Positions 6,848-61,812 of a DNA stretch of 64,000 nt are shown here, one piece after another. Below the pieces are notes generated by a model. That model had not been told where the DNA came from, did not search any database, and worked only from the letters and a program-made list of their open reading frames with translations. The stretch spans positions 37,839 to 101,838 of the forward strand of contig MHTJ01000004.1 in the NCBI GenBank assembly GCA_001823065.1, in the 5' to 3' direction. This DNA is from Candidatus Vogelbacteria bacterium RIFOXYD1_FULL_44_32 (lineage in GTDB: Bacteria > Patescibacteriota > Minisyncoccia > Phycocordibacterales > XYD1-FULL-46-19). Positions within the stretch are counted from its first letter, which is position 1. The number at the start of each line of letters is the position of its first letter. The position numbers were made by a program, and so were the translations under genes.

Positions 6848-8305
6848 ATGGTAAACGACGGCTCCATTGTGCGTTTCGAAGGCGTGTTTTTTGAACACGG
6901 CCCCAACAAACCCATTCTCAAAGATGTGGGTTTTTCGGTTCGGCGGGGGGCCAAAGTTACCCTTATGGGTCAAAACGGGGCTGGTAAAAGCACTATCTTT
7001 GGTCTAATCACGGGGGCACTAACACCCGATAGTGGTGAGATAAATATCGCGACTCGTCTGACTATTGCCACGGCTCGCCAAGTTTTTCCGCGTGCGGAGC
7101 TAGACCTCACCTTGCGCGAGTTTTTTCAAAAACAATTTAAGGAAAAAATATATGATATAGACCCACGGATTGAGGCCGTACTAGAAGCGGTCAACCTCGA
7201 GGCTGACCACGACCGCCTAGTACGGTCCTTTTCTGGTGGCCAGCAAGCGCGACTTCTGCTCGCCTCGGCCCTTATCCAAGATCCCGACCTTTTGCTTTTA
7301 GATGAGCCGACAAATAATCTCGACCGAGCGGGGATCGAGCATCTCACCAATTTTTTGGTGAACTATAAAAAATCTTGCATTGTTATTTCCCATGATGCCG
7401 ACTTTTTAAATTCATTTACTCACGGCGTGCTTTATCTCGATGTTTATACCCATCAGATTGAGCAATATGTGGGTGACTATTTCGATGTGATGAAAGAAAT
7501 CAGTGTCCGGATTGAGAAAGAAAATATGAAGAACGCCCAACTAGCGAAGGAGGTGCAGGCCAACAAAGACAAAGCCAACTTTTTTGCCCAAAAGGGTGGC
7601 CGGATGCGCGTGGTGGCGAAAAAAATGCGAACTAAAGCCGAGGAGCTTGAAGAAGCCAAAGTTGATGTGCGCAAAGAAGACCGCACTATTCGGCCGTTTA
7701 CTATTCCCGCTCAACCTCCAGAGGAGCTGGCCGGTGAGGTCCTGGGTTTGACGGCTTATACTATTGTTAAAAAAAGTAAAACGGTTGATAAAAAAACTAA
7801 AATTTCTTTGCGCAAAAATCAGCATCTACTTTTGGCGGGGCCTAATGGGATTGGCAAAAGTACTCTGCTCGAGAAAATTGCGACTGGTACGGCTTATGGG
7901 GCGACGATTGCGCCCCAAGTAAAAGTGGGTTACTACCGTCAAGATTTTTCGACACTCAATTTTGAGGATACAGTTTTTCGGTCACTAATGTCGGCCATGG
8001 TTAAACCCGATGAAGAACATATGCGAGCAGTCGCTGCCGGGTTTCTTATTCGGGGCGAACTAATTGATACTAAAATTGGTCATTTGTCCGAAGGACAAAA
8101 GGGGTTAGTGGCTTTTGCTCGTTTGGTGCTAGAGCGGCCAGGACTTCTTATTTTAGATGAACCGACCAATCATATTAACTTTCGCCACTTGCCGGTGATT
8201 GCCAAGGCTTTAAGCCAATACGAAGGGGCGATGATTTTAGTAAGTCATGTGCCCGAGTTTGTGGCGCAGATAAGGATTGATGAGGTGTTGGATTTGGAAA
8301 AATAG
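6848..8305 (+). CDS. ABC-F family tandem-ATPase protein (no transmembrane domain)
   Basis: Two ABC cassettes: GQNGAGKST...LSGGQQARLLLA...LLLDEPTNNLD and GPNGIGKST...LSEGQKGLVAFA...LILDEPTNH. The start is leaderless-like, 9 nt after TGTTATAAT. Confidence 0.8.
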   Translation: MVNDGSIVRFEGVFFEHGPNKPILKDVGFSVRRGAKVTLMGQNGAGKSTIFGLITGALTPDSGEINIATRLTIATARQVFPRAELDLTLREFFQKQFKEKIYDIDPRIEAVLEAVNLEADHDRLVRSFSGGQQARLLLASALIQDPDLLLLDEPTNNLDRAGIEHLTNFLVNYKKSCIVISHDADFLNSFTHGVLYLDVYTHQIEQYVGDYFDVMKEISVRIEKENMKNAQLAKEVQANKDKANFFAQKGGRMRVVAKKMRTKAEELEEAKVDVRKEDRTIRPFTIPAQPPEELAGEVLGLTAYTIVKKSKTVDKKTKISLRKNQHLLLAGPNGIGKSTLLEKIATGTAYGATIAPQVKVGYYRQDFSTLNFEDTVFRSLMSAMVKPDEEHMRAVAAGFLIRGELIDTKIGHLSEGQKGLVAFARLVLERPGLLILDEPTNHINFRHLPVIAKALSQYEGAMILVSHVPEFVAQIRIDEVLDLEK

Positions 8306-8312
8306 GACGCTC

Positions 8313-8439
8313 GGAAATGTTTTTCGGCGAGCACACATAATTTTCTGCTGAAAATTTGCTCTGCTCGGGCCGCCCGCCTGCCATGCGAGGCACGAGCGGG
8401 CAGGTCGCCCTTGCGCAAGGCTCGGCGAAAAACATTTCC
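8313..8439. repeat. Structured intergenic repeat, family A copy 1 (conserved core enclosed by 20-bp inverted arms)
   Basis: Arms ggaaatgtttttcggcgagc (8313-8332) and gctcggcgaaaaacatttcc (8420-8439) enclose the core cacacataattttctgctgaaaatttgctctgctcgggccg...tcgcccttgcgcaagg. The same core is found at 17191-17250. Confidence 0.7.
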
Positions 8440-8811
8440 TCGCTTAGTTGGAATAGAAACTTATTTGACTCAAACAGATGAAGTTTCCTGTTCGTCTCAT
8501 TGATTTTTAAACTAGCTCCCACGAAAGCGCCAAAAGGTGAGGGTTCGTTGGGGTGATGGGAAGAAGGGGGGGATTAAATACAGTTAATGAAAAGGCCACC
8601 AACCCCCCAAAAAACGCCCTAGACCGGACGTTTTTTGGAGGCAAAATTACCTTGACAAAACAGCATTTTATGTGCTAGGAATGGGTGGTACTTTTGATCG
8701 TTGAAATAACTCCGACCAGCCTATCGCTGGGCGGAGAACCATATAGATAGAAGAAGGGAAGAAGGAAAGAAACAAAGTTTTCGCCGTGAGGCTAAAACAG
8801 GAGGAAGCGTC

Positions 8812-11157: not shown

Positions 11158-11784
11158 ATGACTATTCGTACTTTCGCAAAAGGAGCTCTTGTAGCAATGC
11201 TTGCTGTTGCGGTCATCGCGCCGTCGCTTGTACTTGCTGCCGCTCTTAATGTTCAGGTTACTACCCCTGCTAATAACGTAGTAGTGGGAGTAAATGAGAA
11301 TGTGTCTTTTGATGTGTCTGCAACCGGTGGGAACCCTGCTTCTTATGGTTACAGCTGGACTTTTGGTGATGGCCAAGGTGCTAACATCAAGAATCCAACT
11401 CACGCATATACATCTACTGGTACAACTACTGCCAGAGTTCAAGTGACTGATATCGCTGGTAATACTGGTGACGCCCAAGTTACCGTTGTTGTTACCGCCG
11501 GTGGTCCTTGCACCCCGCTGATTGTTGAGACTCCAGTTGAGGCCCAACCAAAAGCTACCAATGTTACCAAAGATAGTGCCACTATTGTTTGGACAACTTG
11601 TGAAGCTTCAACCAGCCGGGTTGTATATGACACTGTTTCTCATCCAACCGTAACTGATACTGCTAACCTAGGTTATGCAAACTCAACTACGATTGACAAC
11701 ACCAAAGTTACTACGCACTCGGTAAACTTGACTGGCCTTTCCGCCAACACCAAGTATTACTTCCGTGTTCTTTCGGCTCGCTAA
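11158..11784 (+). CDS. Secreted PKD-domain / fibronectin-III-like protein
   Basis: Signal peptide, then WTFGDGQGANIKNPTHAYTSTGTTTARVQVTD (PKD motif) and a TKYYFRV FN3-like C-terminus. Confidence 0.7.
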   Translation: MTIRTFAKGALVAMLAVAVIAPSLVLAAALNVQVTTPANNVVVGVNENVSFDVSATGGNPASYGYSWTFGDGQGANIKNPTHAYTSTGTTTARVQVTDIAGNTGDAQVTVVVTAGGPCTPLIVETPVEAQPKATNVTKDSATIVWTTCEASTSRVVYDTVSHPTVTDTANLGYANSTTIDNTKVTTHSVNLTGLSANTKYYFRVLSAR

Positions 11785-16532: not shown

Positions 16533-17162
16533 ATGATTGAAATCACACCGGCAATTTTATCGAACACTTGGGGCGATATCGCAGATAAAATCAAAGAAAT
16601 TGGTGATGCTACCACTTGGGTGCAGATTGATGTCTGTGATGGTCATTTTGTACCCAATATTACTTGGGGAGCGCCCGATGATTTGGAACTATTGGATGGT
16701 AAAGCTAAGATTGAAATTCATTTAATGGTGGAGCGCCCTGAAGAAGTGGTGGCGGTGTGGATGAATGTCGCCGACCGACTGGTGGTGCATTTGGAAGCGA
16801 CCGAGAAAATTGAAGATTTGGTGGATGCTTTTCAGTCGACCAATGTTAAATTGGGTTTGGCTTTGCTTGTGGAAACACCAATCGATGATGTGGTGCCTTA
16901 TGTCGACAAAATAGATGTGGTGCAACTAATGGGAATAAAAAAGATAGGGTTTCAGGGTGAAAAATTTGACCCTCTAGTGTTGGAAAAAATAAAAGAGCTA
17001 AGGGCCAAGGCCCCAAATACAAAGATTCAAATTGATGGAGGAATAAATCTAGCCACCGGTCGCGACTGTGTCGCGGCCGGCGCCGACACCCTTGTTGTTG
17101 GCTCGACCTTGTGGGAAAGTGGGGATGTGGTGGATATGATTCATAAGTTTAAAGCGTTATAA
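16533..17162 (+). CDS. rpe: Ribulose-phosphate 3-epimerase
   Basis: Motifs DVCDGHFVPNIT, HLMVERPE and IDGGIN typical of Rpe. Confidence 0.85.
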   Translation: MIEITPAILSNTWGDIADKIKEIGDATTWVQIDVCDGHFVPNITWGAPDDLELLDGKAKIEIHLMVERPEEVVAVWMNVADRLVVHLEATEKIEDLVDAFQSTNVKLGLALLVETPIDDVVPYVDKIDVVQLMGIKKIGFQGEKFDPLVLEKIKELRAKAPNTKIQIDGGINLATGRDCVAAGADTLVVGSTLWESGDVVDMIHKFKAL

Positions 17163-17168
17163 TAAACA

Positions 17169-17275
17169 GAACGCCAGAAGTTAATTTTCATCACACACAT
17201 AATTTTCTGCTGAAAATTTGCTCTGCTCGGGCCGTCGCCCTTGCGCAAGGTTCTGAAAATTAACTTCTGGCGTTC
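17169..17275. repeat. Structured intergenic repeat, family A copy 2 (same core, different perfect 22-bp inverted arms)
   Basis: Arms gaacgccagaagttaattttca (17169-17190) and its exact reverse complement (17254-17275) enclose the family-A core. Confidence 0.7.
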
Positions 17276-17409
17276 CGTGTAGTTTTAAAACTAAAGGAGT
17301 ATCAAAACCTAAATTTGAGAAACTAGGGAGCGCGACGGCGCGAGCTCGAGGAATTTTTTAGCAAAAAAATATCCGTATTCTCAAAATTAGCGTTTTGATG
17401 TGACTCACC

Positions 17410-20088: not shown

Positions 20089-20112
20089 CGAATCAGAAAA
20101 CTGGCGGTGATA

Positions 20113-20170
20113 GCGCGGGCAAGGTTGGATGGCGGGTGCGCCATCCAACCTTGCCCGCGCTTTTTTGTTT
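20113..20170 (+). terminator. Rho-independent terminator (long GC hairpin + T tract)
   Basis: Hairpin gcgcgggcaaggttggatggcgggtgcgccatccaaccttgcccgcgc followed by ttttttg. Confidence 0.85.
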
Positions 20171-23783: not shown

Positions 23784-23819
23784 TTCTAAATTATACCTTT
23801 CTCTGTAATTATTCCCAAA

Positions 23820-24554
23820 AATATTGGACACCGAGTGTCCAATATTTTAAACTTATGATAATGAGAAAGATAAAAATTTGTGAGGGGGAGTATTATCACA
23901 TTTACAATCGTGGAGTAGATAAAAAAGACATTTTTATTGATAAACGAGATTACGCCCGGTTCTTATTTTGTGTTTTGTTTTTCCAATCGCCACTTTCATT
24001 AGTTAATCCTCCCTCCTATATTAATTATTTTATTGGACACTCGGTGTTCAATATTTCTCAAAAAATTAAAAAACAAATAATTAGTGATAAGTATGTTGAG
24101 TTGGTGTCTTTTATATTTATGCCCAATCATTTCCATTTAATTGTTAAGGAAAAGGTGGCAGGGGGAATTTCTCAATATATGCAAAGAATTCAAAATTCTT
24201 TTACAAAATATTTTAATACAAAATATAAAAAGAATGGGCATTTATTTCAGGGGCCATATCAAATTGTTTATATTGAAGATGATGAACAGTTACTTTATTT
24301 ATCATCATATATACATCGGAATTGTCGGGTACTTAATGGTTGGAAGAATAAGGAGGAAAAGTATCCGTGGTCAAGCTACTCTGATTTTTTAGGCCCAAAT
24401 CGGTTTGGTGGTCTATTAGAACCAGAAATTATTATGTCCGAATTTAATAATGCTGGTGATTATAAAATAGAGGTTCAAAACAGTGGCGCCAAAGAGATAA
24501 TTGAAGATTTATTAATTGATAATTGATAATATTGGACACTCGGTGTCCAATATT
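23820..24554 (+). mobile_element. IS200/IS605-family (or RAYT-like) element with 27-bp palindromic termini
   Basis: aatattggacaccgagtgtccaatatt at 23820-23846 and its reverse complement at 24528-24554 flank a HuH tyrosine-transposase ORF. Confidence 0.7.
23855..24526 (+). CDS. tnpA: IS200-like HuH tyrosine transposase (TnpA / REP-associated-like)
   Basis: HIYNRG, HuH motif MPNHFHLIV and catalytic-Tyr motif YIHRN. Start taken at MIMRKIKI. Confidence 0.75.
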   Translation: MIMRKIKICEGEYYHIYNRGVDKKDIFIDKRDYARFLFCVLFFQSPLSLVNPPSYINYFIGHSVFNISQKIKKQIISDKYVELVSFIFMPNHFHLIVKEKVAGGISQYMQRIQNSFTKYFNTKYKKNGHLFQGPYQIVYIEDDEQLLYLSSYIHRNCRVLNGWKNKEEKYPWSSYSDFLGPNRFGGLLEPEIIMSEFNNAGDYKIEVQNSGAKEIIEDLLIDN

Positions 24555-24601
24555 TTGTTTTTCTAGAGAAGATGTAAAGTCTTTATGGTAGAATAGGAGG
24601 A

Positions 24602-25468
24602 ATGAAGACATTAATTGAATATATTCAGGAGGCAGATAAGGGAGGTTGGGCCCTGGGGCATTTTAATATTTCTAATATTGAGGGCCTGTGGGGGGTGTTT
24701 CGGGCGGCCGAGGCTGAAAAATTACCAGTCATTATTGGGGTGTCCGAAGGGGAACGAAATTTTATTGGTATTAAACAGGTTAAAGCTTTGGTTGATAGCT
24801 TGAAGGCCGAATATAACTATCCCATATTTTTAAATGCGGACCATACTTACTCCCTAGAAGAAATAAAAAAAGTGGTGGATGCGGGGTATGACTCAGTGGT
24901 GGTGGATGGGTCGAAACTAAGTTTGGAAGATAATATTACCCTAACGAAAACCGCGGTGGCTTATGCTAAAAGTGTGAACCCTAATATCTTGGTAGAAGGG
25001 GAGATTGGTTATATTGGCACTTCGAGCAAATTGCTGGACGAAATACCAGAGGAGGCCGCGATTTCAGGCGAGGCCTTGCCCTCGCCTGAAATCGCGGCCC
25101 AGTTTGTGCAAGCTACCGGCGTGGACTTGCTCGCTCCAGCAGTGGGTAATTTGCATGGTATGTTAAAGTCGGGGACTGATCCGCGTTTGGATATTGAATT
25201 GATAAAAAATATGCGAACCAAATGTGGGGTGCCACTGGTTTTGCATGGTGGGTCGGGTATTACCGATGAAGATTTTCGGTCGGCGATTAAAGCCGGTGTC
25301 TCGATGATTCATATTAATACCGAAATTAGGATAGTTTTTCGTGATGCTTTAAAAATATATTTGCAAAATAATCCAGACGAGATTGCACCGTACAAAATAA
25401 TGGCTCCGTCTATGCACGCGATTGAACAGAAAACCACCGAGCGATTGCGTTTATTTGCTGGGCGCTAA
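24602..25468 (+). CDS. fba: Class II fructose-bisphosphate aldolase
   Basis: Motifs GHFNISNIEG, LNADHT and LHGGSG. AGGAGG SD. Confidence 0.85.
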   Translation: MKTLIEYIQEADKGGWALGHFNISNIEGLWGVFRAAEAEKLPVIIGVSEGERNFIGIKQVKALVDSLKAEYNYPIFLNADHTYSLEEIKKVVDAGYDSVVVDGSKLSLEDNITLTKTAVAYAKSVNPNILVEGEIGYIGTSSKLLDEIPEEAAISGEALPSPEIAAQFVQATGVDLLAPAVGNLHGMLKSGTDPRLDIELIKNMRTKCGVPLVLHGGSGITDEDFRSAIKAGVSMIHINTEIRIVFRDALKIYLQNNPDEIAPYKIMAPSMHAIEQKTTERLRLFAGR

Positions 25469-34870: not shown

Positions 34871-34987
34871 GTGTGGCTAAATCGCCTTCGGCGATTACCC
34901 GGCCTTACCGGATTTTTTGGCAAGGTTTAGGGGAAGTGAGATAAAAAAGTAAAAAATAAACAGAAAAAGCCCTGTAGGCAGGACTTT

Positions 34988-35015
34988 TTCTGTTTATTGA
35001 CAAAAAATATAGATA
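34988..35015 (+). promoter_or_regulatory. Consensus sigma70-type promoter (TTGACA-16nt-TATAAT)
   Basis: TTGACA at 34988-34993 and TATAAT at 35010-35015; it is preceded by a hairpin terminator at ~34960-34985. Confidence 0.6.
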
Positions 35016-39776: not shown

Positions 39777-41849
39777 ATGCCTAAAAAACCTGAAACTACC
39801 AAACGCCACTATGGGGCCGATGATATTGTGGTCCTAGAGGGCCTAGAAGCCGTGCGCAAGCGCCCCGGCATGTATATTGGCTCAACCGGCGAAGAGGGTC
39901 TCCAGCACCTCATGGTGGAGATTTTTGACAACTCGCGTGACGAAGCGATGAACGGCTATGCCGATGAAATTGAGGTGGCCATTTTGCCGGGCAATGTTAT
40001 CCGCGTGGTGGACAATGGGACTGGTATCCCCGTGGAAAAGCATAAAAAAACTGGGGTTTCCACTTTGGAAACCGTGCTCACAGTGTTGCACGCTGGAGGT
40101 AAATTTGAGGGTGATAGCTACAAAATATCGGGTGGTCTACACGGGGTGGGTGCCTCGGTGGTAAACGCCCTGTCCGAGTGGCTCTCGGCCGAGGTGCACC
40201 GCGATGGTGGCCGGTTTGTCCAGAGTTTTAAAATTGGTAAGAAAGACAAAGATGTTAAAAAGGCGGGCGCTTCTGACAAGCATGGTACGATTATTGCTTT
40301 CAAACCCGACGCGACCATTTTTTCGGAAACAGTTTTTGATTGGCAGAAGGTGGTAAACCACTTGCGCGGGCAGGCTTATCTCGTAAAGGGGGTGCGTATT
40401 CGCGCCATTGATGCGCGTGACTATGCGGGAAAAATAGACACCGACGGTGTGTTTTATTTGTCCGAGCTAAAACTGCCGGTCCCATCTCAAACTTTCTATT
40501 TTGAAGGTGGACTTTTGTCACTTATCAAATTTTACAATCAAAAAGAAAAGCTGGCTCATCGCAATATTTTTTATGTGGAAAAAGAGGCGAGCAATATTAT
40601 GGTGGAAATTGCTTTGCAATATATCGATGATATAGACGCCAAAGAAATTACTTATACCAACAACACTCGTACGCCCGAAGGTGGTACGCACCTCACTGGT
40701 TTCCGCACGGCGCTGACACGAACACTCAACGACTACGGCCGGAAAAATAATTTGATTAAAGAAAACGAAGACAACTTTACCGGCGACGACGTGCGCGAGG
40801 GTATTGTGTGCGTAGTTTCGGTCAAATTGCGTGACCCGCAGTTTGAAGGCCAGACCAAAGCCAAGCTCGGTAGTGTCGAGGCGCGCGGGGCGGTGGAAAC
40901 AGTTTTTGGCGAATCTTTCCAGATGTTTTTGGAAGAAAACCCCGATGACGCCAAGTCGATTATTTCCAAGGTGGTGCTAGCTCTCAAGGCGCGGAAGGCC
41001 GCCAAAGCCGCCAAGGATTCGGTTTTGCGCAAGGGTGCCCTCGATGGCCTAGCCCTACCGGGGAAGCTCGCTGATTGCCAGACGAGGAATGCCGAAGAAT
41101 CTGAGCTATTTATTGTGGAGGGAGACTCGGCTGGTGGTACGGCCAAGACGGGGCGGGATCGGCGGACGCAAGCCATTTTGCCACTGCGGGGCAAGATTTT
41201 GAATGTGGAAAAAGCCCGGCTCGATAAAATGTTGGCCTCCAAAGAAGTGAAGTCACTGGTGATTGCACTCGGCGCTGCTATTGGGGACACTTTTGATATT
41301 TCTAAACTTCGTTATCACAAAATAATTCTGGCCTCCGATGCCGACGTGGACGGGGCGCATATTCGCACTCTATTGCTGACGCTTTTCTACCGCTACTACC
41401 GACCACTTATCGAGGCGGGGCATTTGTATATTGCGCTACCACCTTTGTATATGATTAAAAAAGGTAAGGAGGTGGCCTATGCCTACAATGATGACCAGAA
41501 GGATGAAATAGTGGCCGCCATGGGGGGTATGGCGGCCGAGGCGGTCGTGGAAGTAAGTGATGGTCCGGCCGATGAAGTCGAAGAAGAATCGGCTGACGCG
41601 GTGGAGGAAGCCGAAACCAAAAAACGTTTTGCCAAAATACAGCTCCAGCGCTACAAGGGTCTCGGGGAAATGAATGCCGAACAGCTGTGGGAAACTACCA
41701 TGGATCCGGACACGCGCATTTTAAAACAAGTTACCATTGAGGACGCTGAAGTAGCTGACGGGGTGTTTGATGTTTTAATGGGCGCCGAGGTAGAACCCCG
41801 CCGGCTGTTTATTCAGACGCATGCCAAGATGGCGAATTTGGATATCTAG
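39777..41849 (+). CDS. gyrB: DNA gyrase / topoisomerase IV subunit B
   Basis: GHKL ATPase N-terminus (LEAVRKRPGMYIGS...LHAGGKF), Toprim EGDSAGG, and a C-terminal QRYKGLGEM. Confidence 0.9.
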   Translation: MPKKPETTKRHYGADDIVVLEGLEAVRKRPGMYIGSTGEEGLQHLMVEIFDNSRDEAMNGYADEIEVAILPGNVIRVVDNGTGIPVEKHKKTGVSTLETVLTVLHAGGKFEGDSYKISGGLHGVGASVVNALSEWLSAEVHRDGGRFVQSFKIGKKDKDVKKAGASDKHGTIIAFKPDATIFSETVFDWQKVVNHLRGQAYLVKGVRIRAIDARDYAGKIDTDGVFYLSELKLPVPSQTFYFEGGLLSLIKFYNQKEKLAHRNIFYVEKEASNIMVEIALQYIDDIDAKEITYTNNTRTPEGGTHLTGFRTALTRTLNDYGRKNNLIKENEDNFTGDDVREGIVCVVSVKLRDPQFEGQTKAKLGSVEARGAVETVFGESFQMFLEENPDDAKSIISKVVLALKARKAAKAAKDSVLRKGALDGLALPGKLADCQTRNAEESELFIVEGDSAGGTAKTGRDRRTQAILPLRGKILNVEKARLDKMLASKEVKSLVIALGAAIGDTFDISKLRYHKIILASDADVDGAHIRTLLLTLFYRYYRPLIEAGHLYIALPPLYMIKKGKEVAYAYNDDQKDEIVAAMGGMAAEAVVEVSDGPADEVEEESADAVEEAETKKRFAKIQLQRYKGLGEMNAEQLWETTMDPDTRILKQVTIEDAEVADGVFDVLMGAEVEPRRLFIQTHAKMANLDI

Positions 41850-41860
41850 CATCTTGCCCA

Positions 41861-41894
41861 CAAAAAATCCCGACTACTGGTCGGGATTTTTTGT
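41861..41894 (+). terminator. Rho-independent terminator
   Basis: Hairpin aaaaaatcccgac-tact-ggtcgggattttttg. Confidence 0.85.
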
Positions 41895-42007
41895 GGTTGC
41901 AAATGCTTGACCCAGCCCCTGCCCAGGCCGAGGGCGGGTGCCGAATAGGCACATCTCCCTTGTGTGTGAAGCGCGAGGCCGTATGACCTCTGGGGCTTGG
42001 GTATTAG

Positions 42008-42228
42008 GGCGCTCGCCTAGCTTCCCTTTCAAAACACATCGCCACACCTCTAGAGGTGTGGCGATTCTGCTCCACCGTGGCCGTTTGGCCTTGCCCCTGC
42101 TGGGGCAAAATACCTAAGGCCAAAACCCTGCCGGCCGACAGCTCCGCAAGGTTTTGGAAAGGGAACTAGGCTCACTAACTCGAAAAAGATAAATGGTCAG
42201 CAAAAGGAGTAAGCTCGCTGGGTTGGGG
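42008..42228. repeat. Structured intergenic repeat, family B copy 1
   Basis: Shares a ~170-nt core with 51637-51810 and 54513-54690 (cctttccaaacaca...ctgctccagcggggccgtttggcc...ggccaaaaccctgccggccg...ccgcaaggtttggaaaggg...ctcgctgggttgg). This copy has an extra ~35-nt insert before the 3' tail. Confidence 0.75.
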
Positions 42229-42262
42229 GATTACGAAGCGCGCAGTAGAGCTTGTCTTAGGG

Positions 42263-44616: not shown

Positions 44617-45378
44617 ATGACCAATAAACTTAAAACCATAATCCTAGCCCTTATTTTAGGCCTTTTAGTGGTGCCCACGGCTGGTCAGGCTATATCATTG
44701 TCTGACTTGGAACGGGAACTTTTACGTCTGCAGGGTTTATATGAAGCGCAGTTACTAAAAGTGGGCCGAGAAGAAAATTATGTGATACCAAAAACACCAA
44801 CGCTTATTACTACGGCCGATTATGACTGTACCAAAATAGAAACTACACTTCGCTACCAAATGGTGGATTATCGTGGCCATGAACCAATCAAGGCTCTCCA
44901 AAATTTTCTCAAAGCCAATGGTGATTATACTTTTCCTAGTGCCACTGGCTACTTTGGTAATGAAACCAAAAAAGCGGTGACTCGTTTTCAACAGCGGGTA
45001 GGGATTGTGCCGGCTGATGGTTATGGAGTAGTCGAAGCGACAACCCGAAATCGGATTGAAAGTATTTCCTGTGCAGATGATAAATTGGCTATTAAGCCAG
45101 CTATCCTACCTAGTACAATTGTTGGTGCCAATTATGACACGCTAATTTACGCCACCAATTTTCGGGGTGACCCATCTTTTTTAATTATAAATGGGCGGTT
45201 GCCAGTCGGTCTTAAGCTCATAAATTTGGCCGATGGCCAAGCGACTATTTCTGGTCGGACTCGCCGGGCTGGGGTTTACACTTTTACGGTGAAAGCGATT
45301 GGTACTGGTGAACAAGAAACTGAACGGACGTATACCATAATTTCTAATGATCGAGATGGAGCGTTGTTTGGACCGTAA
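44617..45378 (+). CDS. Secreted peptidoglycan-binding / putative-Ig-domain protein
   Basis: Signal peptide, a PG_binding_1-like region LQNFLKANGDY...GYFGNETKKAVTRFQQRVGIVPADGYGVV, and a He_PIG-like LPVGLKLINLADGQATISGRTRRAGVYTFTV. Confidence 0.65.
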   Translation: MTNKLKTIILALILGLLVVPTAGQAISLSDLERELLRLQGLYEAQLLKVGREENYVIPKTPTLITTADYDCTKIETTLRYQMVDYRGHEPIKALQNFLKANGDYTFPSATGYFGNETKKAVTRFQQRVGIVPADGYGVVEATTRNRIESISCADDKLAIKPAILPSTIVGANYDTLIYATNFRGDPSFLIINGRLPVGLKLINLADGQATISGRTRRAGVYTFTVKAIGTGEQETERTYTIISNDRDGALFGP

Positions 45379-45390
45379 AAATAAATAGAA

Positions 45391-45430
45391 AACCCGCCGC
45401 CGGCTCTGGTGCCGGCGGCGGGTTTTTATT
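45391..45430 (+). terminator. Rho-independent terminator
   Basis: Hairpin aaaacccgccgccggc-tctggt-gccggcggcgggttttt. Confidence 0.85.
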
Positions 45431-45444
45431 TTCCAACCAAGCGA

Positions 45445-45464
45445 GGAAATGTTTTTCGCCGAGC
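45445..45464. repeat. Solo copy of the family-A1 20-bp arm (ggaaatgtttttcgccgagc)
   Basis: Exact reverse complement of 8420-8439 with no partner arm or core nearby. Confidence 0.7.
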
Positions 45465-45491
45465 CTTTGATATATTTCCCAACCCAGCGAA

Positions 45492-45733
45492 CATTCTAAT
45501 TTTGGACTTTCGCGAGAGTGAATTTGGAAATCAAGGAAGCGAGCAGTAAATTCCATCTGTTTGACCCTGTGGAATAAGTAGACAAACTTTTTTAAGCAAT
45601 TAATATTCTGTTCTGAAGTTATATAATCACTAAATGTTAAAGTCTCTATTCCACGGGGGAGTTATGGAATTTGCGTCGTGAGATGAGTATGATTTCCAAT
45701 TTACGAAGCGTCCCCAGTCCAAAAATTAGAATG
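45492..45733. repeat. MITE-like nested inverted-repeat element abutting the dnaE stop
   Basis: Outer inverted repeat cattctaattttggact (45492-45508) / agtccaaaaattagaatg (45716-45733); inner repeat tgaatttggaaatca (45519-45533) / tgatttccaatttac (45690-45704). Confidence 0.5.
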
Positions 45734-45741
45734 TGAGCGCC

Positions 45742-48700
45742 CTATTCTAAGACTTTCACCGCTTCTACCAACAGACTGGGCTCGCCATTGCGATGATTTA
45801 TTTTTCCCTTTAGAGCCAGACAGGTATCGGGGACCAAAATATCTTTAAAATTTAGATAGCGGTCAGAAAAGAATACGGTTTCAATTTTGTCGGTTAGGTC
45901 GGCAATGCGGACAAAAGCCATAGCGTCACCTTTTTTAGTGTAAATGACTTTTACTTCCTCTACTATCCCGCCAATCGTGGTAGTGGTCCCGTCGTGGAGG
46001 TGTTTGTTATGGTGAATAGTATTTTCTGCTCGCGTAAATTTGTCTCGAAAAGCATCGAGGGGGTGGCCAGAAATATACAAGCCAAGTAATTCTTTTTCCC
46101 AAACTAGACGTTCTTTAGTTTCGATCGCCGGGTATGGTTTCAGGCGAAAAGCAGGGACGCTCGACTGGTCTGACATGGCGCCAAAGAGGGAATCTTGCCC
46201 ACCCGAGTGGATAGTCTGTTTGGCGTACTCTAAAGCGATTTCCATATTGCCGAGCATAGTGCCCCGGTCTTCGCCCAAAGAGTCGAGAGCGCCAGATTTT
46301 ATCAAAGCTTCTAATGATTTTTTGTTTAAATTCTTATGATTTATGCGGTCGAGAAATTCAGTAAAGTTTTTAAATAGCCCACCTCGTTTACGTTCGGCGA
46401 CAATCGCGTCACCAATGTCTTTGCCAAAGTTTTTAATTGTATACAAACCAAAACGAATTGCCCGACTAGTTTCAATCGTTTTATCGTCTTCGGCGACCAC
46501 AGTGAAATAGCCAAAACTTTCGTTCACATCAGGGGGCAATATTTTTATACCCATTCTTTTACCCTCGTCCACATAGATCGCCACTTGGTCAATATCACCC
46601 GATTCGGCGGTTAGACAGGCACACATGTAGGCGACTGGGAAGTTGGCTTTCATATAGGCCGTTTGATAGGCGACCCGACCGTATGAGGCGGAGTGCGCTT
46701 TGTTGAAACCATATGCCGCAAACGGCTCGAGCCAAGTCCAGATCTCGGTCGCTTTGTCTTTAGTCCAGCCGGTGTGTTCGATACAGCCCTTGATAAATTT
46801 CTCTCGTTGTTCGGCCATCAGTTCGGGAATTTTTTTACCCACCGCTTTGCGAAATTTGTCCACTTCACCCCAAGTGTAGCCAGCCAAGTCGTGGGCCATA
46901 ATCAAGAGGTCATCTTGATAAACCAACACCCCATAGGATTGTTTCAAAATATTTTCCAAAGCCGGGTCTAGATAGGAAATAAGTTTAGGATTGTGTTTTC
47001 TGGCAATATAGTCGGGGATAAATTGCATTGGTCCCGGTCGATAAAGAGCCACCATGGCGTTGATATCGTGGATAGTGCTGGGCTTTAATTCTTTTAGCCA
47101 GCGGGTCATGCCGGCGCCGTTTAGCTGGAACAAACCTTCGGTCTCACCTCGGGCCAACATGGCGAAAGTTGTTTTGTCATCCATCGGGATTGTTTCCAAA
47201 TCAACTTTGTGACCATAAATTTTGGCCACCAGTTTGACCGCATCGGCCAAAATAGATAGGTTGCGCAAACCCAAAAAATCAAATTTGGTTAGGCCGACAC
47301 CGTCTTCGCCCACACTGTACATATCGTATTGGGTAATAAGGGACTCACCTTTGGGGTCCCACTGGATCGGTACATATTCCAAAAGAGGCGAGGGGGCAAT
47401 GACCACGCCAGCGGCGTGGACCGAGATGTGGCGGGCCGAGCCTTCTATTTTTTTAGCCAAGTCTAAAATATTTTTAGTATCGTTTTCGTTGTCATAGGCC
47501 TCTTTTAGCTCGGGGACCATTTCCAGAGCGCGGTCAATTGTCATCGGGAAACCTTGGGAACCCATCGGGATCATTTTGGATAAGCGGTCGCCGACCGAGT
47601 AGGGGTAGCTCAGCGCGCGGGCCACATCGCGTACCGAGCCGCGCGCCATCATTGTTCCAAATGTTCCAATCTGAGCAACTTTGTCGGCGCCATATTTTTG
47701 TTTAGCATATTCAATAATCTCGTCGCGACGATTGTCGGCAAAGTCCATATCGATATCGGGGGCCGAGGGGCGCTCGGGGTTTAGGAAACGCTCAAAGGGG
47801 ATTTGATATTCCAGCGGATTAATCTTGGTAATATCTAGAGCATAAGTAGTGATCGAACCAGCCACCGACCCTCGAATATTATAATAAATATCATTTTCCC
47901 GAGCATAGCGGATTAGGTCTTCTACTACCAAAAAATAGCCGGCATAACCTTTAAATTTAATAATATCTAATTCGTATTCTAGGCGTTTGAGTGCCTCTTC
48001 ACTACTTGCTAGTTCGCGGTTAGCTAAACCAGCTAAAGCGAGTTTTTTAAGTTGGGTGTCAGCGGTTTCGCCCGCGGGTAATTGAAACTCAGGGAAAACA
48101 AATTTACCCAAAGTCATTTCGACTTTACATTTTTCCGCAATCTTTATTGTATTGGCCACAGCTTCGGGCCAGTCGGCATAAATTTCTTCCGCTTCAGCGG
48201 GACTAATGAAAGAATAGTCACCAGCCTTCATCGACATCCCACTTTTGCCGACTTCGGCGCCGGTGTTGATTGCGACTAGAGTGTCTTGGGCTTCGGCATC
48301 GGCTTTGTCTAAATAGTGTGAGTCCCAAGTGGCGACATATGGTAGGTCATATTCCTTGGCCAAAGTTTCTAGACCAGCATGAATATTTTGGATATTTTCT
48401 ACTTCTTTATGATTCATTACTTCTAAATAGAAATTATCGCGGCCAAAAATGGATAACCATTCATCTATTACCTTGCGACCACGGTCGAGATTGTTGGCCG
48501 CCAGCGCCTCGGCTAGTTCGCCCCCCGGACAGCCAGACAAACAGATCAGGCCATCGGCACATTCACGCAATAAGTCCTTGTCGACTCGCGGTTTGTAGTA
48601 ATAGCCCTCGGTGTGGGCCAGGGTGGTAAGTTTGATGAGGTTTCTGTAACCAGTATTGTCTTTAGCCAAGAGGGTGAGGTGGTAACGTTTAGAGTCGATA

Positions 48701-50940: not shown

Positions 50941-51636
50941 ATGAATACAGAACCCCAGAAATTTGCAGAGGCCATTGGTATTGGTTTCACTAATATAGAT
51001 TTTTTGATTCAGGCCTTTACGCATCGGTCTTATTTAAATGAGCATCGGGAAATTAGCCACGACCACAACGAACGGCTCGAGTTTTTGGGTGACGCCGTCC
51101 TCGAGCTAGTGGTCACCAATTTTCTATACAAAACTTTTCCCGGGAAACCCGAGGGCGAGCTGACGGCCTACCGGGCCGCTTTGGTCAACACCACTACTCT
51201 GTCGGATGCGGCCAAAAAACTAGGGATGAATGATTATTTGCTATTGTCCAAAGGGGAAGCCAAAGACACCGGCCGGGCCCGCCAATATATTTTAGCCAAC
51301 ACTTTCGAGGCGGTGATTGGCGCCATTTATCTTGACCAGGGTTATGATGTGGCCACGGACTTTATCACGACCAACTTATTGTATTTGATTAAGGAAATTG
51401 TGGCCAAAAATTTGTGGCAAGATGCCAAAAGTTTTTTTCAAGAAAAGGCGCAGGAGGTAGAGGGGGTGACACCGGCTTATGAAGTATTGAAACAGATTGG
51501 ACCCGACCACAACAAATGCTTTACTGTTGGCGTGTATTTGCGGGACGAACTAGTCGCCGAAGGGGAGGGACACTCGAAACAAGAGGCGGAACAGGAGGCC
51601 GCAAAGGGGGGATTGGAGAAAAAGGGGTGGGGGTAA
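50941..51636 (+). CDS. rnc: Ribonuclease III
   Basis: RNase III signature ERLEFLGDAVLEL and a C-terminal dsRBD. Confidence 0.9.
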   Translation: MNTEPQKFAEAIGIGFTNIDFLIQAFTHRSYLNEHREISHDHNERLEFLGDAVLELVVTNFLYKTFPGKPEGELTAYRAALVNTTTLSDAAKKLGMNDYLLLSKGEAKDTGRARQYILANTFEAVIGAIYLDQGYDVATDFITTNLLYLIKEIVAKNLWQDAKSFFQEKAQEVEGVTPAYEVLKQIGPDHNKCFTVGVYLRDELVAEGEGHSKQEAEQEAAKGGLEKKGWG

Positions 51637-51810
51637 GCACTCGCCTAGCTTCCCTTTCCAAACACAGAAAAAGCCCCAGCGGGCTTTTCCTTCTGCTCCA
51701 GCGGGGCCGTTTGGCCTAGTGCCTACTGGCACAAAATTCTCCAAAGGCCAAAACCCTGCCGGCCGACACCTCCGCAAGGTTTGGAAAGGGAACTAGGCTC
51801 GCTGGGTTGG
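51637..51810. repeat. Structured intergenic repeat, family B copy 2
   Basis: Starts immediately after the rnc stop. Same core as copies 1 and 3 but with different hairpin inserts (aaaagccccagcgggctttt; gtgcctactggcac). Confidence 0.75.
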
Positions 51811-51843
51811 ATAATAAAGTAGAAGTATAGGTGTTTTTTGTCT

Positions 51844-51871
51844 TGACAGATTATCTGTGCATTCTATAATT
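51844..51871 (+). promoter_or_regulatory. Consensus sigma70-type promoter (TTGACA-16nt-TATAAT)
   Basis: TTGACA at 51844-51849 and TATAAT at 51866-51871. Confidence 0.6.
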
Positions 51872-51933
51872 TTACAAGAATAAAATTCAACCATCCTTGA
51901 GACTTTGTCAAAAGGACGAGAAGGAGAAGATAT

Positions 51934-52179
51934 ATGCATGGGTTCCCGGATGAAGACGACAATGATGTCGTCTTGGTTAGTCACGATCCACTGGTGTATT
52001 TGATAAAACCAGAAGGAGTGACCATTGGTCGATTTGAGGCTTATGAGGCCTTTGCTGGTGCTGTTGGTCGCCTTCGGAAACTTTGCCCGGATGTGAAGTT
52101 TCAATTCATTTCAGCTGGATTTGAGACTATTGAAGGCGCAGACCCGGCTTTGTCGGTCATTATGGCGATTGCGGACTAA
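51934..52179 (+). CDS. Small acidic protein (81 aa) with strong promoter, SD and terminator
   Basis: AAGGAG 7 nt upstream of the ATG. Terminator gtcgccgcagg-tttta-cctgcggcgac + T8 at 52194-52230. No recognised motif. Confidence 0.55.
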   Translation: MHGFPDEDDNDVVLVSHDPLVYLIKPEGVTIGRFEAYEAFAGAVGRLRKLCPDVKFQFISAGFETIEGADPALSVIMAIAD

Positions 52180-52280
52180 GTGTCGCTGAATCAGTCGCCG
52201 CAGGTTTTACCTGCGGCGACTTTCTTTTTTATGTTAAAATAATACAGACAAATACAAGCTATACTTTATACTAATTTTCT

Positions 52281-54512
52281 ATGCGTCTCCTTTCCCTTGA
52301 ACTATCTGGTTTCAAGTCGTTTGCTAAAAAGACGACGCTTCTTTTTGAGTCGCAGGTCACTTCGATTGTCGGCCCCAATGGTAGTGGCAAGTCCAATGTG
52401 GCCGAGGCCTTTCGTTGGGTGTTGGGCGAGCAGTCGCTAAAGTCACTGCGGGGTAAGCGGGGCGAGGATTTAATTTTTAATGGCGGTGGCGGCCACAGCC
52501 AGCAAAGCAAAGCCAGTGCCACGGTGGTTTTTGACAATCGTGACAAGCGCCTCGCTTTTGACTTTGACGAAGTAGCTATCACCCGTAGTGTCTATCGTGA
52601 TGGGACCAATGAATATAAAATAAACAATTCGGTCGTGCGTTTGAAAGATGTGCTCGAGCTGTTGTCGGGGGTGTCACTGGGGCCATCGGGACATCATATT
52701 ATTAGTCAGGGTGAAGCGGACCGAATTTTGAACGCGAGCTTGAAAGAAAGGCGCGAGATGATTGAAGAGGCGCTGGGGCTAAAGGCCTATCAGTGGAAAA
52801 TTGAAGAGAGCGAAAGAAAGTTGGCCAAAACGGAAGAAAATATCCGGCAGGTGGAGTCACTGCGGCGGGAAATTGCGCCCCATATTAAATTTCTTAAAAA
52901 ACAGGTAGAAAAAATCGAAAAGATTGATGAATTACGGCGTGATTTAAAAAAGAAATATCTCGACTATTTTATTCGCGAGGATGACTATCTCAAAAGTGAG
53001 CAAGCCGAAATCAATTCTCGACGCGCTAAACCGGAAGCGGAGCTGGCCGGGGTAATAAATAAATTGGCGCAAGTTGAAAATTTGTTAGCCTCACCCGATG
53101 AGGTGACCAAGGACAAGATGCAGGCGCTAGCTACCGCCGACCGAACTTTGCGGGAAATGCAAAGTCAGAAAGATGAATTGGCGCGCTCTTTGGGCCGGTT
53201 GGAGGGGATGATCGAAATTAGGTCTGAGGAAAAGCCTCTTACCGAGGGCGGTCGTAGTGTCCCTTTTGGAGAAATAAAAGATTTCACCGGCCGGCTGGCG
53301 GAGAGTATTGTGCGGGCCGAAGAAGCTGGTGATTTTTCAGTGCTTAAAAATATTTTAGGGCAGATTAAGGTGGAAATAAAAAGTTTTGTTGACCGGTTTC
53401 GCGAGGCACCGGCTGTGCGAGACAACCAAGTGGCTCTCTCGAGTTTAGTGCAGGAAAAAGAAGAAGCGACAAGGGAACTGGGCGAACTGGAAGCGCGTGA
53501 ACTAAATTTGCGGGAGGAAAGAAAAAATATGGCCAGTAGTTTGGAAGCGGGGCGCGAGCGTCTCCACGGGGCCGAGCGGGAACGTTATGAATTGCGGGCC
53601 CAAAAAAGTGAGTGGCAGGCAGTGTTGCACGACTTGTCGGCGCGCGAGCAAACCTTGACCCGCGAGCGGGAAAATTTTACTAAAGAAATAGCTGAAGCCC
53701 GGGTGCTGGTGGACAGCGAAGTGGCAGATTTTCGGCGGTTGGTACCGCTGGTACCGGATATGAATGAAGCGCGTGATGCTCAATATGACCGCTTACGCGA
53801 AATTGAAAAAATCAAAATTCGACTAGAGGATATGGGGGTCGAGACTGGGGATGTGCTCGAAGAATACAAAGAGGTGACCGACCGGGACCTTTTTCTAGAA
53901 AAAGAATTGGTCGATTTACATCAAAGTGCTGATTCGTTGCAGAAAATAATGGCGGAATTAAAAGAAAAACTGACGGTCGAGTTTAAAGAGGGTATCGATA
54001 AGATTAATAAAGAATTTAGTAATTATTTTACCCTCATGTTTGGTGGTGGCACCGCCGAGCTGAAAGTGGTGGCCCAGCCTAAACGTCGTTCGTTGGCGGA
54101 TGAAATACTAGAAGGGACTAATCTCGGCGAGTATGCCGAGACGGCTAAACCTGAAGAGGGTATTGATATTGGCGTATCTTTACCGCGCAAAAAAGTCAAA
54201 GGGCTGGTGATGATGTCGGGTGGGGAAAGAGCGCTGACCTCGATTGCACTCCTTTTTGCAATGTCGCAAGTTAACCCACCACCGTTTATTATTTTAGATG
54301 AAACTGATGCGGCCCTCGATGAAGCCAATTCACGCAAGTATGGCGATATGATAGAACGGCTGGCCAAAGAGTCACAACTGATTTTGATTACGCACAACCG
54401 CGAGACCATGTCGCGAGCTGGCGTTTTGTACGGGGTGACGATGGGCGCCGACGGGGTGTCAAAATTACTCTCAATCAAGTTTGATGAGGCCGCTTCAACT
54501 TTTGCAAAGTAG
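52281..54512 (+). CDS. smc: SMC-family chromosome-segregation ATPase (compact, 743 aa, no obvious hinge)
   Basis: N-terminus MRLLSLELSGFKSFAKKTTLLFE...IVGPNGSGKSNV. C-terminus LSGGERALTSIALLFA...ILDETDAALDEAN. A long coiled-coil region lies between them. Confidence 0.75.
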   Translation: MRLLSLELSGFKSFAKKTTLLFESQVTSIVGPNGSGKSNVAEAFRWVLGEQSLKSLRGKRGEDLIFNGGGGHSQQSKASATVVFDNRDKRLAFDFDEVAITRSVYRDGTNEYKINNSVVRLKDVLELLSGVSLGPSGHHIISQGEADRILNASLKERREMIEEALGLKAYQWKIEESERKLAKTEENIRQVESLRREIAPHIKFLKKQVEKIEKIDELRRDLKKKYLDYFIREDDYLKSEQAEINSRRAKPEAELAGVINKLAQVENLLASPDEVTKDKMQALATADRTLREMQSQKDELARSLGRLEGMIEIRSEEKPLTEGGRSVPFGEIKDFTGRLAESIVRAEEAGDFSVLKNILGQIKVEIKSFVDRFREAPAVRDNQVALSSLVQEKEEATRELGELEARELNLREERKNMASSLEAGRERLHGAERERYELRAQKSEWQAVLHDLSAREQTLTRERENFTKEIAEARVLVDSEVADFRRLVPLVPDMNEARDAQYDRLREIEKIKIRLEDMGVETGDVLEEYKEVTDRDLFLEKELVDLHQSADSLQKIMAELKEKLTVEFKEGIDKINKEFSNYFTLMFGGGTAELKVVAQPKRRSLADEILEGTNLGEYAETAKPEEGIDIGVSLPRKKVKGLVMMSGGERALTSIALLFAMSQVNPPPFIILDETDAALDEANSRKYGDMIERLAKESQLILITHNRETMSRAGVLYGVTMGADGVSKLLSIKFDEAASTFAK

Positions 54513-54690
54513 GGCACTCACCTCACTTCCTTTTCCAAACACATCGCCACACCTCTAGAGGTGTGGCGATTTTGCTCCAGCGGGGCCGTTTGGCCTCGTG
54601 TCTGCTGACACAACAATACCTAAGGCCAAAACCCTGCCGGCCGCCACCTCCGCAAGGTTTGGAAAAGGAAGGAGGTTCGCTGGGCTGGGG
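54513..54690. repeat. Structured intergenic repeat, family B copy 3
   Basis: Starts immediately after the smc stop. The outer stem changed compensatorily relative to copies 1 and 2 (cacttccttttccaaac / gtttggaaaaggaagg). Confidence 0.75.
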
Positions 54691-54810
54691 AGGGGAAGGG
54701 GTAAATGGTAAAACTAGGTCAGTGGTGGTAGGATATTTGAGATGGATGAATTGGAAAAAGTTAAACAAAAATTGGCGGAAATATTGGGTAGCGATAAGTG
54801 ATTTAACAAA

Positions 54811-61539: not shown

Positions 61540-61812
61540 GTCCCCAATTCGGCAAGATTGAGTTGCGACCGCCGTCCGAAGCAACGTTTCTTGCATTTAT
61601 CTCAGATGGTTTTAAGCCCGAAGCGTCAAGCAGAGGGAGTTCTGTGGTTTGGTTTCATTTGTCATTTCTTTTTCGGCAGATGTTTTCTGGAGTACGGATA
61701 TTTTCTTGCTAGAAAATTCCTCGAGCTCGCGCCGCCGCGCTCCCTAGTCTCCAGCAAACACCCGCCTTCAACGAAATGATTTTGGGTAATTATTTTTTAA
61801 TAATAATTTTTA

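Follow-up and report, generated by a model that had tools for sequence, protein, structure and literature searches.

The genome of Candidatus Vogelbacteria RIFOXYD1_FULL_44_32, a member of the candidate phyla radiation (CPR), carries a previously undescribed family of hairpin-forming intergenic repeats. We have analysed a stretch of 64,000 nucleotides of this organism (contig MHTJ01000004.1 of assembly GCA_001823065.1, positions 37,839 to 101,838; hereafter, the window), in which one such element directly follows the ribonuclease III gene rnc. The repeats are non-coding, they occupy the 3′ ends of housekeeping genes with a fixed end towards the gene, and they are missing from near relatives. 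With a confidence slightly better than even, we favour their interpretation as modular, rod-shaped palindromic intergenic repeats, similar to repetitive extragenic palindromic (REP) sequences and to MITEs (transposable elements of the miniature inverted-repeat type), which would be specific to a Vogelbacteria subclade and co-transcribed as the terminator-bearing 3′ ends of genes.

A preliminary description of this DNA, made from the letters alone, had reported three structured copies of ~175 nt sharing several sequence blocks, and all three are indeed present on the + strand with those blocks (c1, c2 and c3; Table 1). We refer to them as family B. For the window, the number is exact: an exhaustive and filter-free covariance-model scan of its whole length gave no family-B copy beyond c1, c2 and c3, and the 20-mer GGCCAAAACCCTGCCGGCCG shows three exact matches there against 0.01 expected. 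It understates, however, the real extent of these repeats, which comprise 12 family-B copies within a larger set of families A-D plus a candidate family E. As a general anatomy, an element is made up of a 5′ flank (stop codon, ~4 nt and CTCRC), a ~20-bp closing stem, a conserved multi-hairpin core and a 3′ flank, TCGCTGGGTTGG. In each window copy, the closing stem (GCCTAGCTTCCCTTTCCAAAC / GTTTGGAAAGGGAACTAGGC) encloses three inner parts: a first hairpin, a GGCC-rich two-helix core bearing a second small hairpin, and a largely unpaired conserved block ending in GCAAGG, the GCA of which pairs in c2 (ACACCTCCGCAAGG) with the UGC at 51693-51695. The motif CTCGCTGGGTTGG from the 3′ flank, with up to two mismatches, has seven matches in the window against 1.1 expected, six of them at element ends and the seventh (45260) inside the open reading frame (ORF) 44617-45378; in c1, a 31-nt extra module parts this terminal motif from the body of the element. 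The swapping of the first hairpin, the point covariation of the second and the covariation of the outer stem were all found as originally described. The first hairpin of c1 and c3 is a 28-nt perfect palindrome with a central CTAG, ATCGCCACACCTCTAGAGGTGTGGCGAT, in place of which c2 has GAAAAAGCCCCAGCGGGCTTTTC. This palindrome is 100% identical between c1 and c3 while the remainder of those copies is 87% identical, and it does not occur in the other 10 family-B copies, which suggests either a recent conversion or a nested mini-insertion. Other, independent assemblies are 100% identical to the window, and short-read contigs break off within c1, c2 and the family-A fragment, as expected of genome-wide repeats.

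Table 1. Elements, element parts and neighbouring features in the window (positions count from its first letter)
Feature	Position	Strand	Evidence or remark
c2, family-B copy	51637..51810	+	covariance model 193.9 bits; fold -79.1 kcal/mol, z -3.9
c2 outer (closing) stem, 5′ arm GCCTAGCTTCCCTTTCCAAAC	51643..51663	+	partner is 51779-51798
c2 hairpin 1 (A-tract, GC stem, CAGC loop, U-tract); swappable module, terminator-like in both directions	51667..51689	+	
c2 core: GGGGCCGTTTGGCC, hairpin 2 (51719-51732), A-rich spacer, GGCCAAAACCCTGCCGGCCG; sequence-invariant helices	51703..51765	+	
c2 conserved block ACACCTCCGCAAGG, mostly unpaired, with anti-Shine-Dalgarno-like CACCUCC	51766..51779	+	alignment conservation
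c2 outer stem, 3′ arm GTTTGGAAAGGGAACTAGGC	51779..51798	+	fold and alignment
3′ flank motif CTCGCTGGGTTGG, common to families A-D	51798..51810	+	
c1, family-B copy: palindrome 42038-42065, first 3′ motif CTCACTAACTCG 42171-42182, extra module 42183-42213, second 3′ motif 42214-42226	42005..42229	+	
c3, family-B copy: first three bases are the smc stop TAG (54510-54512), 28-nt palindrome 54543-54570	54510..54688	+	
Family-A element after ORF 6848-8305 (stop TAG), same flanks and architecture	8302..8452	+	50 bits, E 3e-10; fold z -5.4
Short family-A element after ORF 16533-17162; closing stem unrelated to that of 8302-8452	17164..17281	+	33.8 bits; fold z -8.2
Family-C element directly after dnaE stop (TAG 45742-45744, - strand)	45478..45744	-	relatives in L034, L044, L002
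Family-A 3′ fragment behind the family-C copy, followed by canonical terminator 45389-45426	45425..45467	-	
Family-C 3′ remnant behind the family-A copy	8469..8560	+	matches complete C element at L002 orthologous site
Candidate family E	17291-17408	-	weak B-model match, 21.6 bits
Candidate family E	61664-61779	+	weak B-model match, 10.5 bits
Inserted segment X (155 nt) between gyrB stop and c1: bidirectional terminator 41858-41896 and GC-rich hairpin ending CTCTGGGGCTTGGGTAT	41850..42004	+	
Consensus sigma-70 promoter (12/12), 33 nt past c2	51843..51870	+	

In the preliminary description, each window copy had been placed right after a stop codon or a terminator, which is correct for c2, whose first base is the one directly 3′ of the rnc stop (TAA, 51634-51636), and for c3, which overlaps the smc stop, but not for c1, which does not abut gyrB: it lies 156 nt behind the gyrB stop (41847-41849) and ~109 nt past the bidirectional terminator 41858-41896. 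The names given to the three genes hold, the rnc product being 100% identical to a protein named ribonuclease III, the smc product carrying an SMC_N domain and the gyrB product showing 79-91% identity to genes that have gyrase B domains. Nine further family-B copies were located in the source genome and four relatives by exact-pattern scans and by look-ups near orthologous genes, which makes 12 copies in five genomes: one more in the source genome (after argS, at the locus L043; loci outside the window are cited by such numbers), four in CAZIIR01, two in CAYHFD01, one in JAUPVZ01 and one in Vogelbacteria RIFOXYD1_FULL_46_19. Scans of sequence collections gave a single true match among the seven of the metagenome scan and 17 chance matches in GC-rich coding DNA among the 22 of the genome scan. 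No additional copy lies in the 7.5 kb that adjoin the window on its right, and viral contigs, phage records and plasmid records gave no match to the element. The record titles of L002, L004 and L006-L008 (CAZIIR01, CAYHFD01) say “uncultured Candidatus Saccharibacteria”, names that look wrong; the GyrB, DnaE and Rnc proteins of the CAZIIR01 and CAYHFD01 loci are 83-91% identical to those of the Vogelbacteria window.

All 12 family-B copies are co-oriented with the gene on their 5′ side (argS four times, gyrB twice, rnc, smc, lysS, recG, ndk and one unnamed gene), and 11 of them abut its stop codon. Among 20 gene-adjacent elements of the four families, the spacing from the stop to the CTC is exactly 4 nt in 13 cases and 0-6 nt in all of them, and each of the three stops, TAA, TAG and TGA, occurs before elements. 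TAG ends 10 of the 20 element-adjacent genes versus 20% of other ORFs (P = 0.002) and the displaced copy c1 still retains an unused TAG in register (42005-42007), so that the element often seems to bring the stop codon along; the end of Rnc varies by no more than 3 residues between genomes with and without the element. The family-C copy after dnaE sits on the minus strand in the orientation of dnaE, which indicates that orientation tracks the gene and not the replichore.

Presence of the elements at orthologous sites is polymorphic. In syntenic relatives with 74% Rnc identity, the rnc-smc spacers measure 48-72 nt, and neither an element nor the flank motif occurs in ~60 kb of their DNA; L036 and L039 have no element between rnc and smc or between smc and rnr. 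In the window, the spacer that precedes ORF 6848-8305 is empty, and L002 carries a family-B copy just upstream of the orthologue of this ORF, behind a different upstream gene. Moreover, different families occur at one and the same site: the orthologous position after rnc holds B, D or C, and the one after argS holds B in four genomes, D in one contig and C in another. Two contigs with identical ArgS, L041 and L042, are 99.98% identical over 11,730 bp, up to ...TAGGGCGCTCG; beyond position 11730, L041 continues with family D and L042 with family B, and their ileS genes are just 86% identical. Either true recombination or an assembly join may have produced this break at the 5′ flank, and we have not used it as evidence of cassette exchange.

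The elements are far better conserved than neutral DNA. In the four genomes with a family-B copy after argS, identity at the four-fold degenerate sites of this gene is 35-40%, or 35-44% once L044, the family-C genome, is counted too, which means saturation, whereas the elements that follow argS in the same genomes are 73-88% identical. The 12 copies are 70-89% identical in pairwise comparisons, and they cluster neither by genome nor by locus. Together with the saturated neutral sites, these figures rule out a recent burst, neutral decay and a simple within-genome homogenisation, and they point to either purifying selection on each copy or a continual exchange among these co-occurring organisms. 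The original proposal of a structured element under constraint, and not of a neutral repeat, is reinforced by the nine extra copies, which also covary. The preliminary description had set two outcomes against itself, further copies without covariation that look like random decay, or identical copies left by a recent burst; the copies in fact covary and are 70-89% alike.

The covariation is real, but it carries no RNA signature. A MAFFT alignment of the 12 copies supports a consensus structure of 54 pairs, or 648 cells, of which 95.4% are paired versus 86.3% in shuffles. Changes on both sides of a pair affect 22 of the 54 pairs, a number that none of 500 shuffles reached and that compares with 3-6 in slid-partner controls, with the caveat that related sequences may exceed shuffles without any structure. 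Double changes are found in 8 of the 22 pairs of helix 1 (the closing stem) and in all 7 pairs of helix 2 (hairpin 1), and in helix 4 the pair 69-154 goes from U-A to C-G in L042. Helices 5 and 6 (the GGCC core, 13 pairs) are invariant in the 12 copies from five genomes, and variation is limited to the closing stem and the two small hairpins. There are no one-sided (G-U) intermediates in the 648 cells, all changes being purely Watson-Crick, and the sense-strand mismatches are A.C (8) and G.U (1). In all 20 elements the antisense strand folds more stably, the mean difference being 9.0 kcal/mol, as a consequence of the C+A-rich composition of the sense strand, the unpaired regions of which are rich in A and C. 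Paired dinucleotide shuffles reproduce the strand offset (8.4 kcal/mol) and the z-scores are equal (-6.6 for the + strand and -6.7 for the - strand), so a strand call from folding energy was discarded as a composition artefact. Since the changes are exclusively Watson-Crick and the z-scores of both strands are equal, the covariation does not point to RNA; the G-U intermediates and the strand-specific folding signal expected from a generic structured RNA are both absent. Of the earlier proposal of a functional RNA or a structure-recognised mobile DNA, the structure and the constraint are largely upheld, but the covariation gives no pointer to RNA. This covariation fits equally well with selection for pairing, on one strand or the other, with DNA hairpins being recognised and with arm-to-arm correction in quasi-palindromes; the last process, acting on DNA without any selection on RNA, could be its source. 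An action as RNA and an action as DNA cannot be told apart from these data.

Family B is one member of a superfamily composed of the four families A-D plus the weaker candidate E. A covariance model built on family B also matches family A and family D (L030, 55 bits) over its full length, and family C is recognised through its flanks. All families follow a common plan: the closing stem is long, an ACA(C) junction is present, a 4-nt loop caps the A/U-rich first hairpin, and there are one or two GC hairpins. Families A-D share the flanks stop-NNNG-CTCRC at the 5′ side and TCGCTGGGTTGG at the 3′ side, which are missing in the short family-A copy (17164) and in family E. The core of this short copy contains a 41-nt stretch 100% identical to 8332-8372, and the two candidate-E copies have a common core, TACGGATATTTTCTTGCTAGAAAATTCCTCGAGCTCGCGCCGCCGCGCTCCCTAGT, within unrelated closing stems. 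Neither of the latter adjoins a stop codon: the copy at 17291-17408 ends 2 nt ahead of the start of ORF 17410, and the one at 61664-61779 is located in the leader of rpoB, a place without such an element in the syntenic relative L036. Unrelated stems around near-identical cores are not the product of gradual divergence, but of modules being recombined. Turnover at the level of DNA shows further in truncated older elements that lie downstream of complete copies (8469-8560, 45425-45467 and L007), in the change of family at orthologous sites, in segment X and in the palindrome common to c1 and c3. Perfect palindromes with arms of 18-23 nt and loops of 1-6 nt are many in this clade (20112-20161 and 25054-25099 in the window, 8782-8826 in L043, 661-703 in L034); several are terminator-like and lie at gene ends, and those at 25054-25099 of the window and 8782-8826 of L043 lie inside ORFs. 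Their arm length matches that of the closing stems, and one idea would be that cores insert into the apex of resident palindromes.

Under our favoured explanation, the elements would spread and exchange modules at the DNA level, through insertion or recombination at the stop-codon junction, where the element would often supply the TAG. Once inserted, they would be co-transcribed with the upstream gene and retained by selection as a terminator and a 3′-end-protecting hairpin, with the closing stem protecting the 3′ end or insulating the gene from the next promoter. Hairpin 1 (AAACACAGAAAA-stem-UUUUCUUCUG) matches the stand-alone terminators 34955-34998, 41858-41896 and 45389-45426 in design and position, and in 10 of the 12 family-B copies it shows a GC stem of 4-6 bp, lengthened by A/U pairs and followed by UUUUCUUCU; a simple terminator scan flagged the palindrome variant alone, on the - strand. 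A consensus promoter stands just 3′ of c2, which places this copy at a transcription-unit boundary, and the argS copies have the ileS promoter region behind them, so that the elements appear at transcription-unit ends.

Several observations weigh against this explanation. No transposase, REP-associated tyrosine transposase (RAYT) or integrase was seen in the gene tables and Pfam matches of the window ORFs and ~250 kb of related DNA. There is no unambiguous target-site duplication either: echoes of the stop triplet (TAA...TAA around c2, TGA...TGA in L008, TAG...TAG around segment X) are suggestive but not significant, as the stop triplet is the first stop-like triplet past the 3′ motif in 11 of 20 elements versus 7.9 expected (P = 0.11). 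Copy pairs within a genome are all at most 84% identical, with no sign of recent transposition, and families A, D and E surround cores that are 94-100% identical with copy-specific closing stems, the reverse of a classical MITE. Finally, a role as terminator accounts neither for the invariant family-B core (GGCCGTTTGGCC ... GGCCAAAACCCNGCCGGCC) nor for the fixed 4-nt spacing from the stop, which keeps a translation-coupled RNA of the 3′ untranslated region (3′-UTR) and a structure-recognised DNA as live readings. A bolder proposal, which we put forward only tentatively and regard as rather doubtful, would be a new class of elements, with conserved branched cores at the apex of copy-specific ~20-bp stems, near-fixed at 4 nt from stops and under strong purifying selection in the CPR, acting either as translation-termination-coupled 3′-UTR RNAs with a dedicated partner or as “mobile terminators” for which structure would guide the homing to gene ends, through a mechanism not yet described. 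Two further candidates were rejected on the way. CTCGC is not a target-site duplication, because the positions at which it varies change together like paired bases (G-C to A-T, columns 13/177) and not like a direct repeat; and coding potential was dismissed, given that modules of differing non-triplet lengths interchange and that ORFs on either strand run past the element.

If the elements were cis-acting structured RNAs of the 3′-UTR, a dedicated partner would recognise the invariant core and the unpaired blocks (ACAC, UCUGCUC, CACCUCCGCAAGG), and through the 4-nt spacing the fold would be coupled to the ribosome at termination, with ribosome release, mRNA decay or processing as possible examples. 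The sequence invariance of these parts across genomes with saturated neutral sites, the strict co-orientation and the same spacing whatever the stop codon all speak for such RNAs, as do the A/C-rich unpaired regions of the sense strand and the combination of variable stems with conserved junctions, a pattern typical of functional RNAs. We nevertheless consider them unlikely, because the sense strand shows no G-U pairs or one-sided changes and its mismatches are A.C, the folding z-scores have no strand preference, the loops are neither GNRA nor UNCG, and there is no Rfam match; in addition, the 3′ arm would stay untranscribed if hairpin 1 terminates, and unrelated families substitute for each other at one site. 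This last feature, with different “cassettes” at one position, would rather be expected from a mobile element that is recognised in its folded, single-stranded DNA form, as are IS200/IS605-derived palindrome-associated sequences, REPIN/RAYT systems or integron attC sites, where the hairpins would serve as recognition features for a Y1 transposase or a tyrosine recombinase. Watson-Crick-only covariation and strand-symmetric stability are what DNA hairpins should give, the elements keep their structure while their stems vary, and they lie immediately 3′ of ORFs and co-oriented with them, as attC does; the contig pair that is 99.98% identical up to the 5′ flank and divergent beyond it would also fit, be it a recombination junction or an assembly join. 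However, the DNA inspected showed no Y1 transposase, RAYT or integrase, the ends have neither the GTAG tetranucleotide nor a pair of R″/R′ sites (RYYYAAC / GTTRRRY), the elements keep the orientation of the gene also when it lies on the opposite strand (family C after dnaE) and do not follow the direction of replication, and their neighbours are not cassettes but housekeeping genes whose synteny is conserved, all of which makes this alternative quite improbable. As for attC itself, that reading was rejected: the core sites are absent, the 5′ flank GGCGCTC lacks AAC, and GTTGG is unpaired, ~10 nt outside the stem.

Multicopy families of small RNAs exist, and each copy could in principle be an independent gene for a trans-acting RNA of ~180 nt, working for instance through its anti-Shine-Dalgarno-like CACCUCC, a block that is conserved and unpaired within a stable fold. 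A discrete new non-coding RNA (ncRNA) gene is nonetheless the least likely of the surviving readings, and in our judgement a very improbable one. The elements start 0-6 nt after the stop, with no room and no conserved promoter in between, and the sole nearby consensus promoter is downstream and points away; they contain a terminator-like hairpin, they form a mosaic superfamily whose copies are truncated and nested like repeats, and their covariation has no RNA signature. The ~180-nt ncRNA contemplated in the preliminary description thus finds little support. A neutral decaying repeat or an assembly artefact, in which compensation would reflect chance or shared ancestry, deserves hardly any credence. 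Related sequences can indeed exceed shuffles without structure, and some shared variants are subfamily signatures, such as those of c1 with L006; against this stand the excess of double-change pairs over the slid-partner controls (22 versus 3-6), the identity of the elements compared with that of four-fold sites (73-88% versus 35-44%), the identical sequence in independent assemblies and the presence of copies in five genomes.

Among known systems, REP sequences with their bacterial interspersed mosaic elements (BIMEs), and REPINs, are extragenic palindromic repeats placed just 3′ of stops inside transcription units, which form mosaics, undergo compensatory change and show long-term vertical descent (PMC3116915; bioRxiv 10.1101/2021.07.10.451892). 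The Vogelbacteria elements resemble REP/BIME in being palindromic repeats behind stop codons, in their mosaics and in the maintenance of pairing by compensatory change. Protection of mRNA 3′ ends has been proposed as a role of REPs. However, REPs measure 20-40 nt and have a conserved GTAG, and a REPIN consists of two inverted REPs, whereas the Vogelbacteria elements span 100-250 nt and show a single long stem with a branched core, non-complementary conserved flanks and a near-fixed spacing from the stop. GTAG is absent from the feet of their hairpins, the inverted pair of REP/REPIN is not found, and neither the Pfam matches of the ORFs in the window nor the called genes of related loci include a RAYT. 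The ERIC/IRU and YPAL repeats of Enterobacteria and Yersinia and the Correia repeats of Neisseria are imperfect palindromes of 100-170 nt, co-transcribed with adjacent genes, that can act as terminators or RNase III substrates (reviews PMC3184786, PMC2229807, PMC10969869). None of these repeats has sequence similarity to the Vogelbacteria elements, and Correia elements combine conserved 26-bp terminal repeats with a TA duplication, whereas the elements described here have variable terminal stems, copy-specific in families A, D and E, around a conserved interior and show no unambiguous duplication. Rickettsia palindromic elements (RPE) are families of hairpin repeats of ~100-150 nt in the reduced genomes of host-dependent bacteria, with no identified transposase; they often lie in frame inside ORFs, whereas the elements described here lie outside ORFs, at the stop codon and in one orientation. 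Integron attC sites share with them an imperfect palindrome, a structure kept above sequence and a location immediately 3′ of an ORF in the same orientation, but the Vogelbacteria elements have no R″/R′ core sites, no integrase was seen nearby, and the upstream genes are syntenic housekeeping genes and not cassettes.

With respect to the bidirectional terminators of the host itself, the elements add a ~20-bp closing stem, an invariant core of 60 nt and conserved flanks, none of which a terminator needs. Classical MITEs have conserved terminal inverted repeats that match those of a parent insertion sequence; the Vogelbacteria elements vary precisely at their terminal stems, and no parent insertion sequence was found in the window or in related loci, although they do show the presence/absence polymorphism at orthologous sites that characterises MITEs. 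Rfam (release 15) at the gathering threshold gives just two tRNAs in the window; the element alone gives nothing above chance at E values up to 10, and five related loci give nothing. In the literature on repeats, MITEs or ncRNAs of Patescibacteria and Vogelbacteria we found no description of these elements. They are, altogether, akin in kind to REP/BIME, ERIC, Correia or RPE, yet they fail the defining tests of the classical MITE, the REPIN, the attC site and every Rfam family.

Segment X is bordered by TAG on either side, the orthologue of c1 in L007 (2627-2805) lies directly on the gyrB stop, and X is not present there: this segment was inserted precisely at the gyrB stop, displacing c1 downstream. 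Between c2 and smc there are the promoter of Table 1, a small ORF (51934-52179, 81 aa, no Pfam match) and a strong terminator (52193-52221), a unit (51843-52221) that is not found in the relatives with 74% Rnc identity, whose rnc-smc gap is 48-72 nt. Runs of G follow the 3′ flank at 54676-54708 (c3: GGGCTGGGGAGGGGAAGGGG) and at 42214-42229 of the window, with comparable runs behind copies in L007, L008 and L044, and they may form a G-quadruplex on the sense strand. Elsewhere in the window, the operator-like palindrome TATTGGACACYSRGTGTCCAATA occurs three times in the pfkB-fba intergenic region (23811-23847, 24020-24056, 24519-24555), and similar GACAC-N4-GTGTC hairpins stand before TCGCT..GTTGG motifs in L030 (~8005-8025) and L034 (~4062-4080). 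At 9688-9831 of the window, ORF 8812-10956, whose product has thrombospondin type-3 and PASTA domains, contains a (GGTGAA)n tandem repeat coding for a run of Gly-Glu.

The genomes of CPR/Patescibacteria are very small and usually held to be poor in repeats and mobile DNA, and here we find structured repeats at the 3′ ends of many genes. With ~4 family-B copies and a similar number of relatives in 86 kb of the source genome, a rough extrapolation gives them something like 1-2% of a 0.7-Mb genome. They also break the short-read assemblies of these organisms, and are potential strain markers. If they are mobile, the precision at the stop codon and the design of variable stems with a conserved core would imply a targeting mechanism undescribed for bacterial MITEs. 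If they function as terminators or 3′-UTR modules, they would show how a reduced genome gains and swaps the boundaries of its transcription units.

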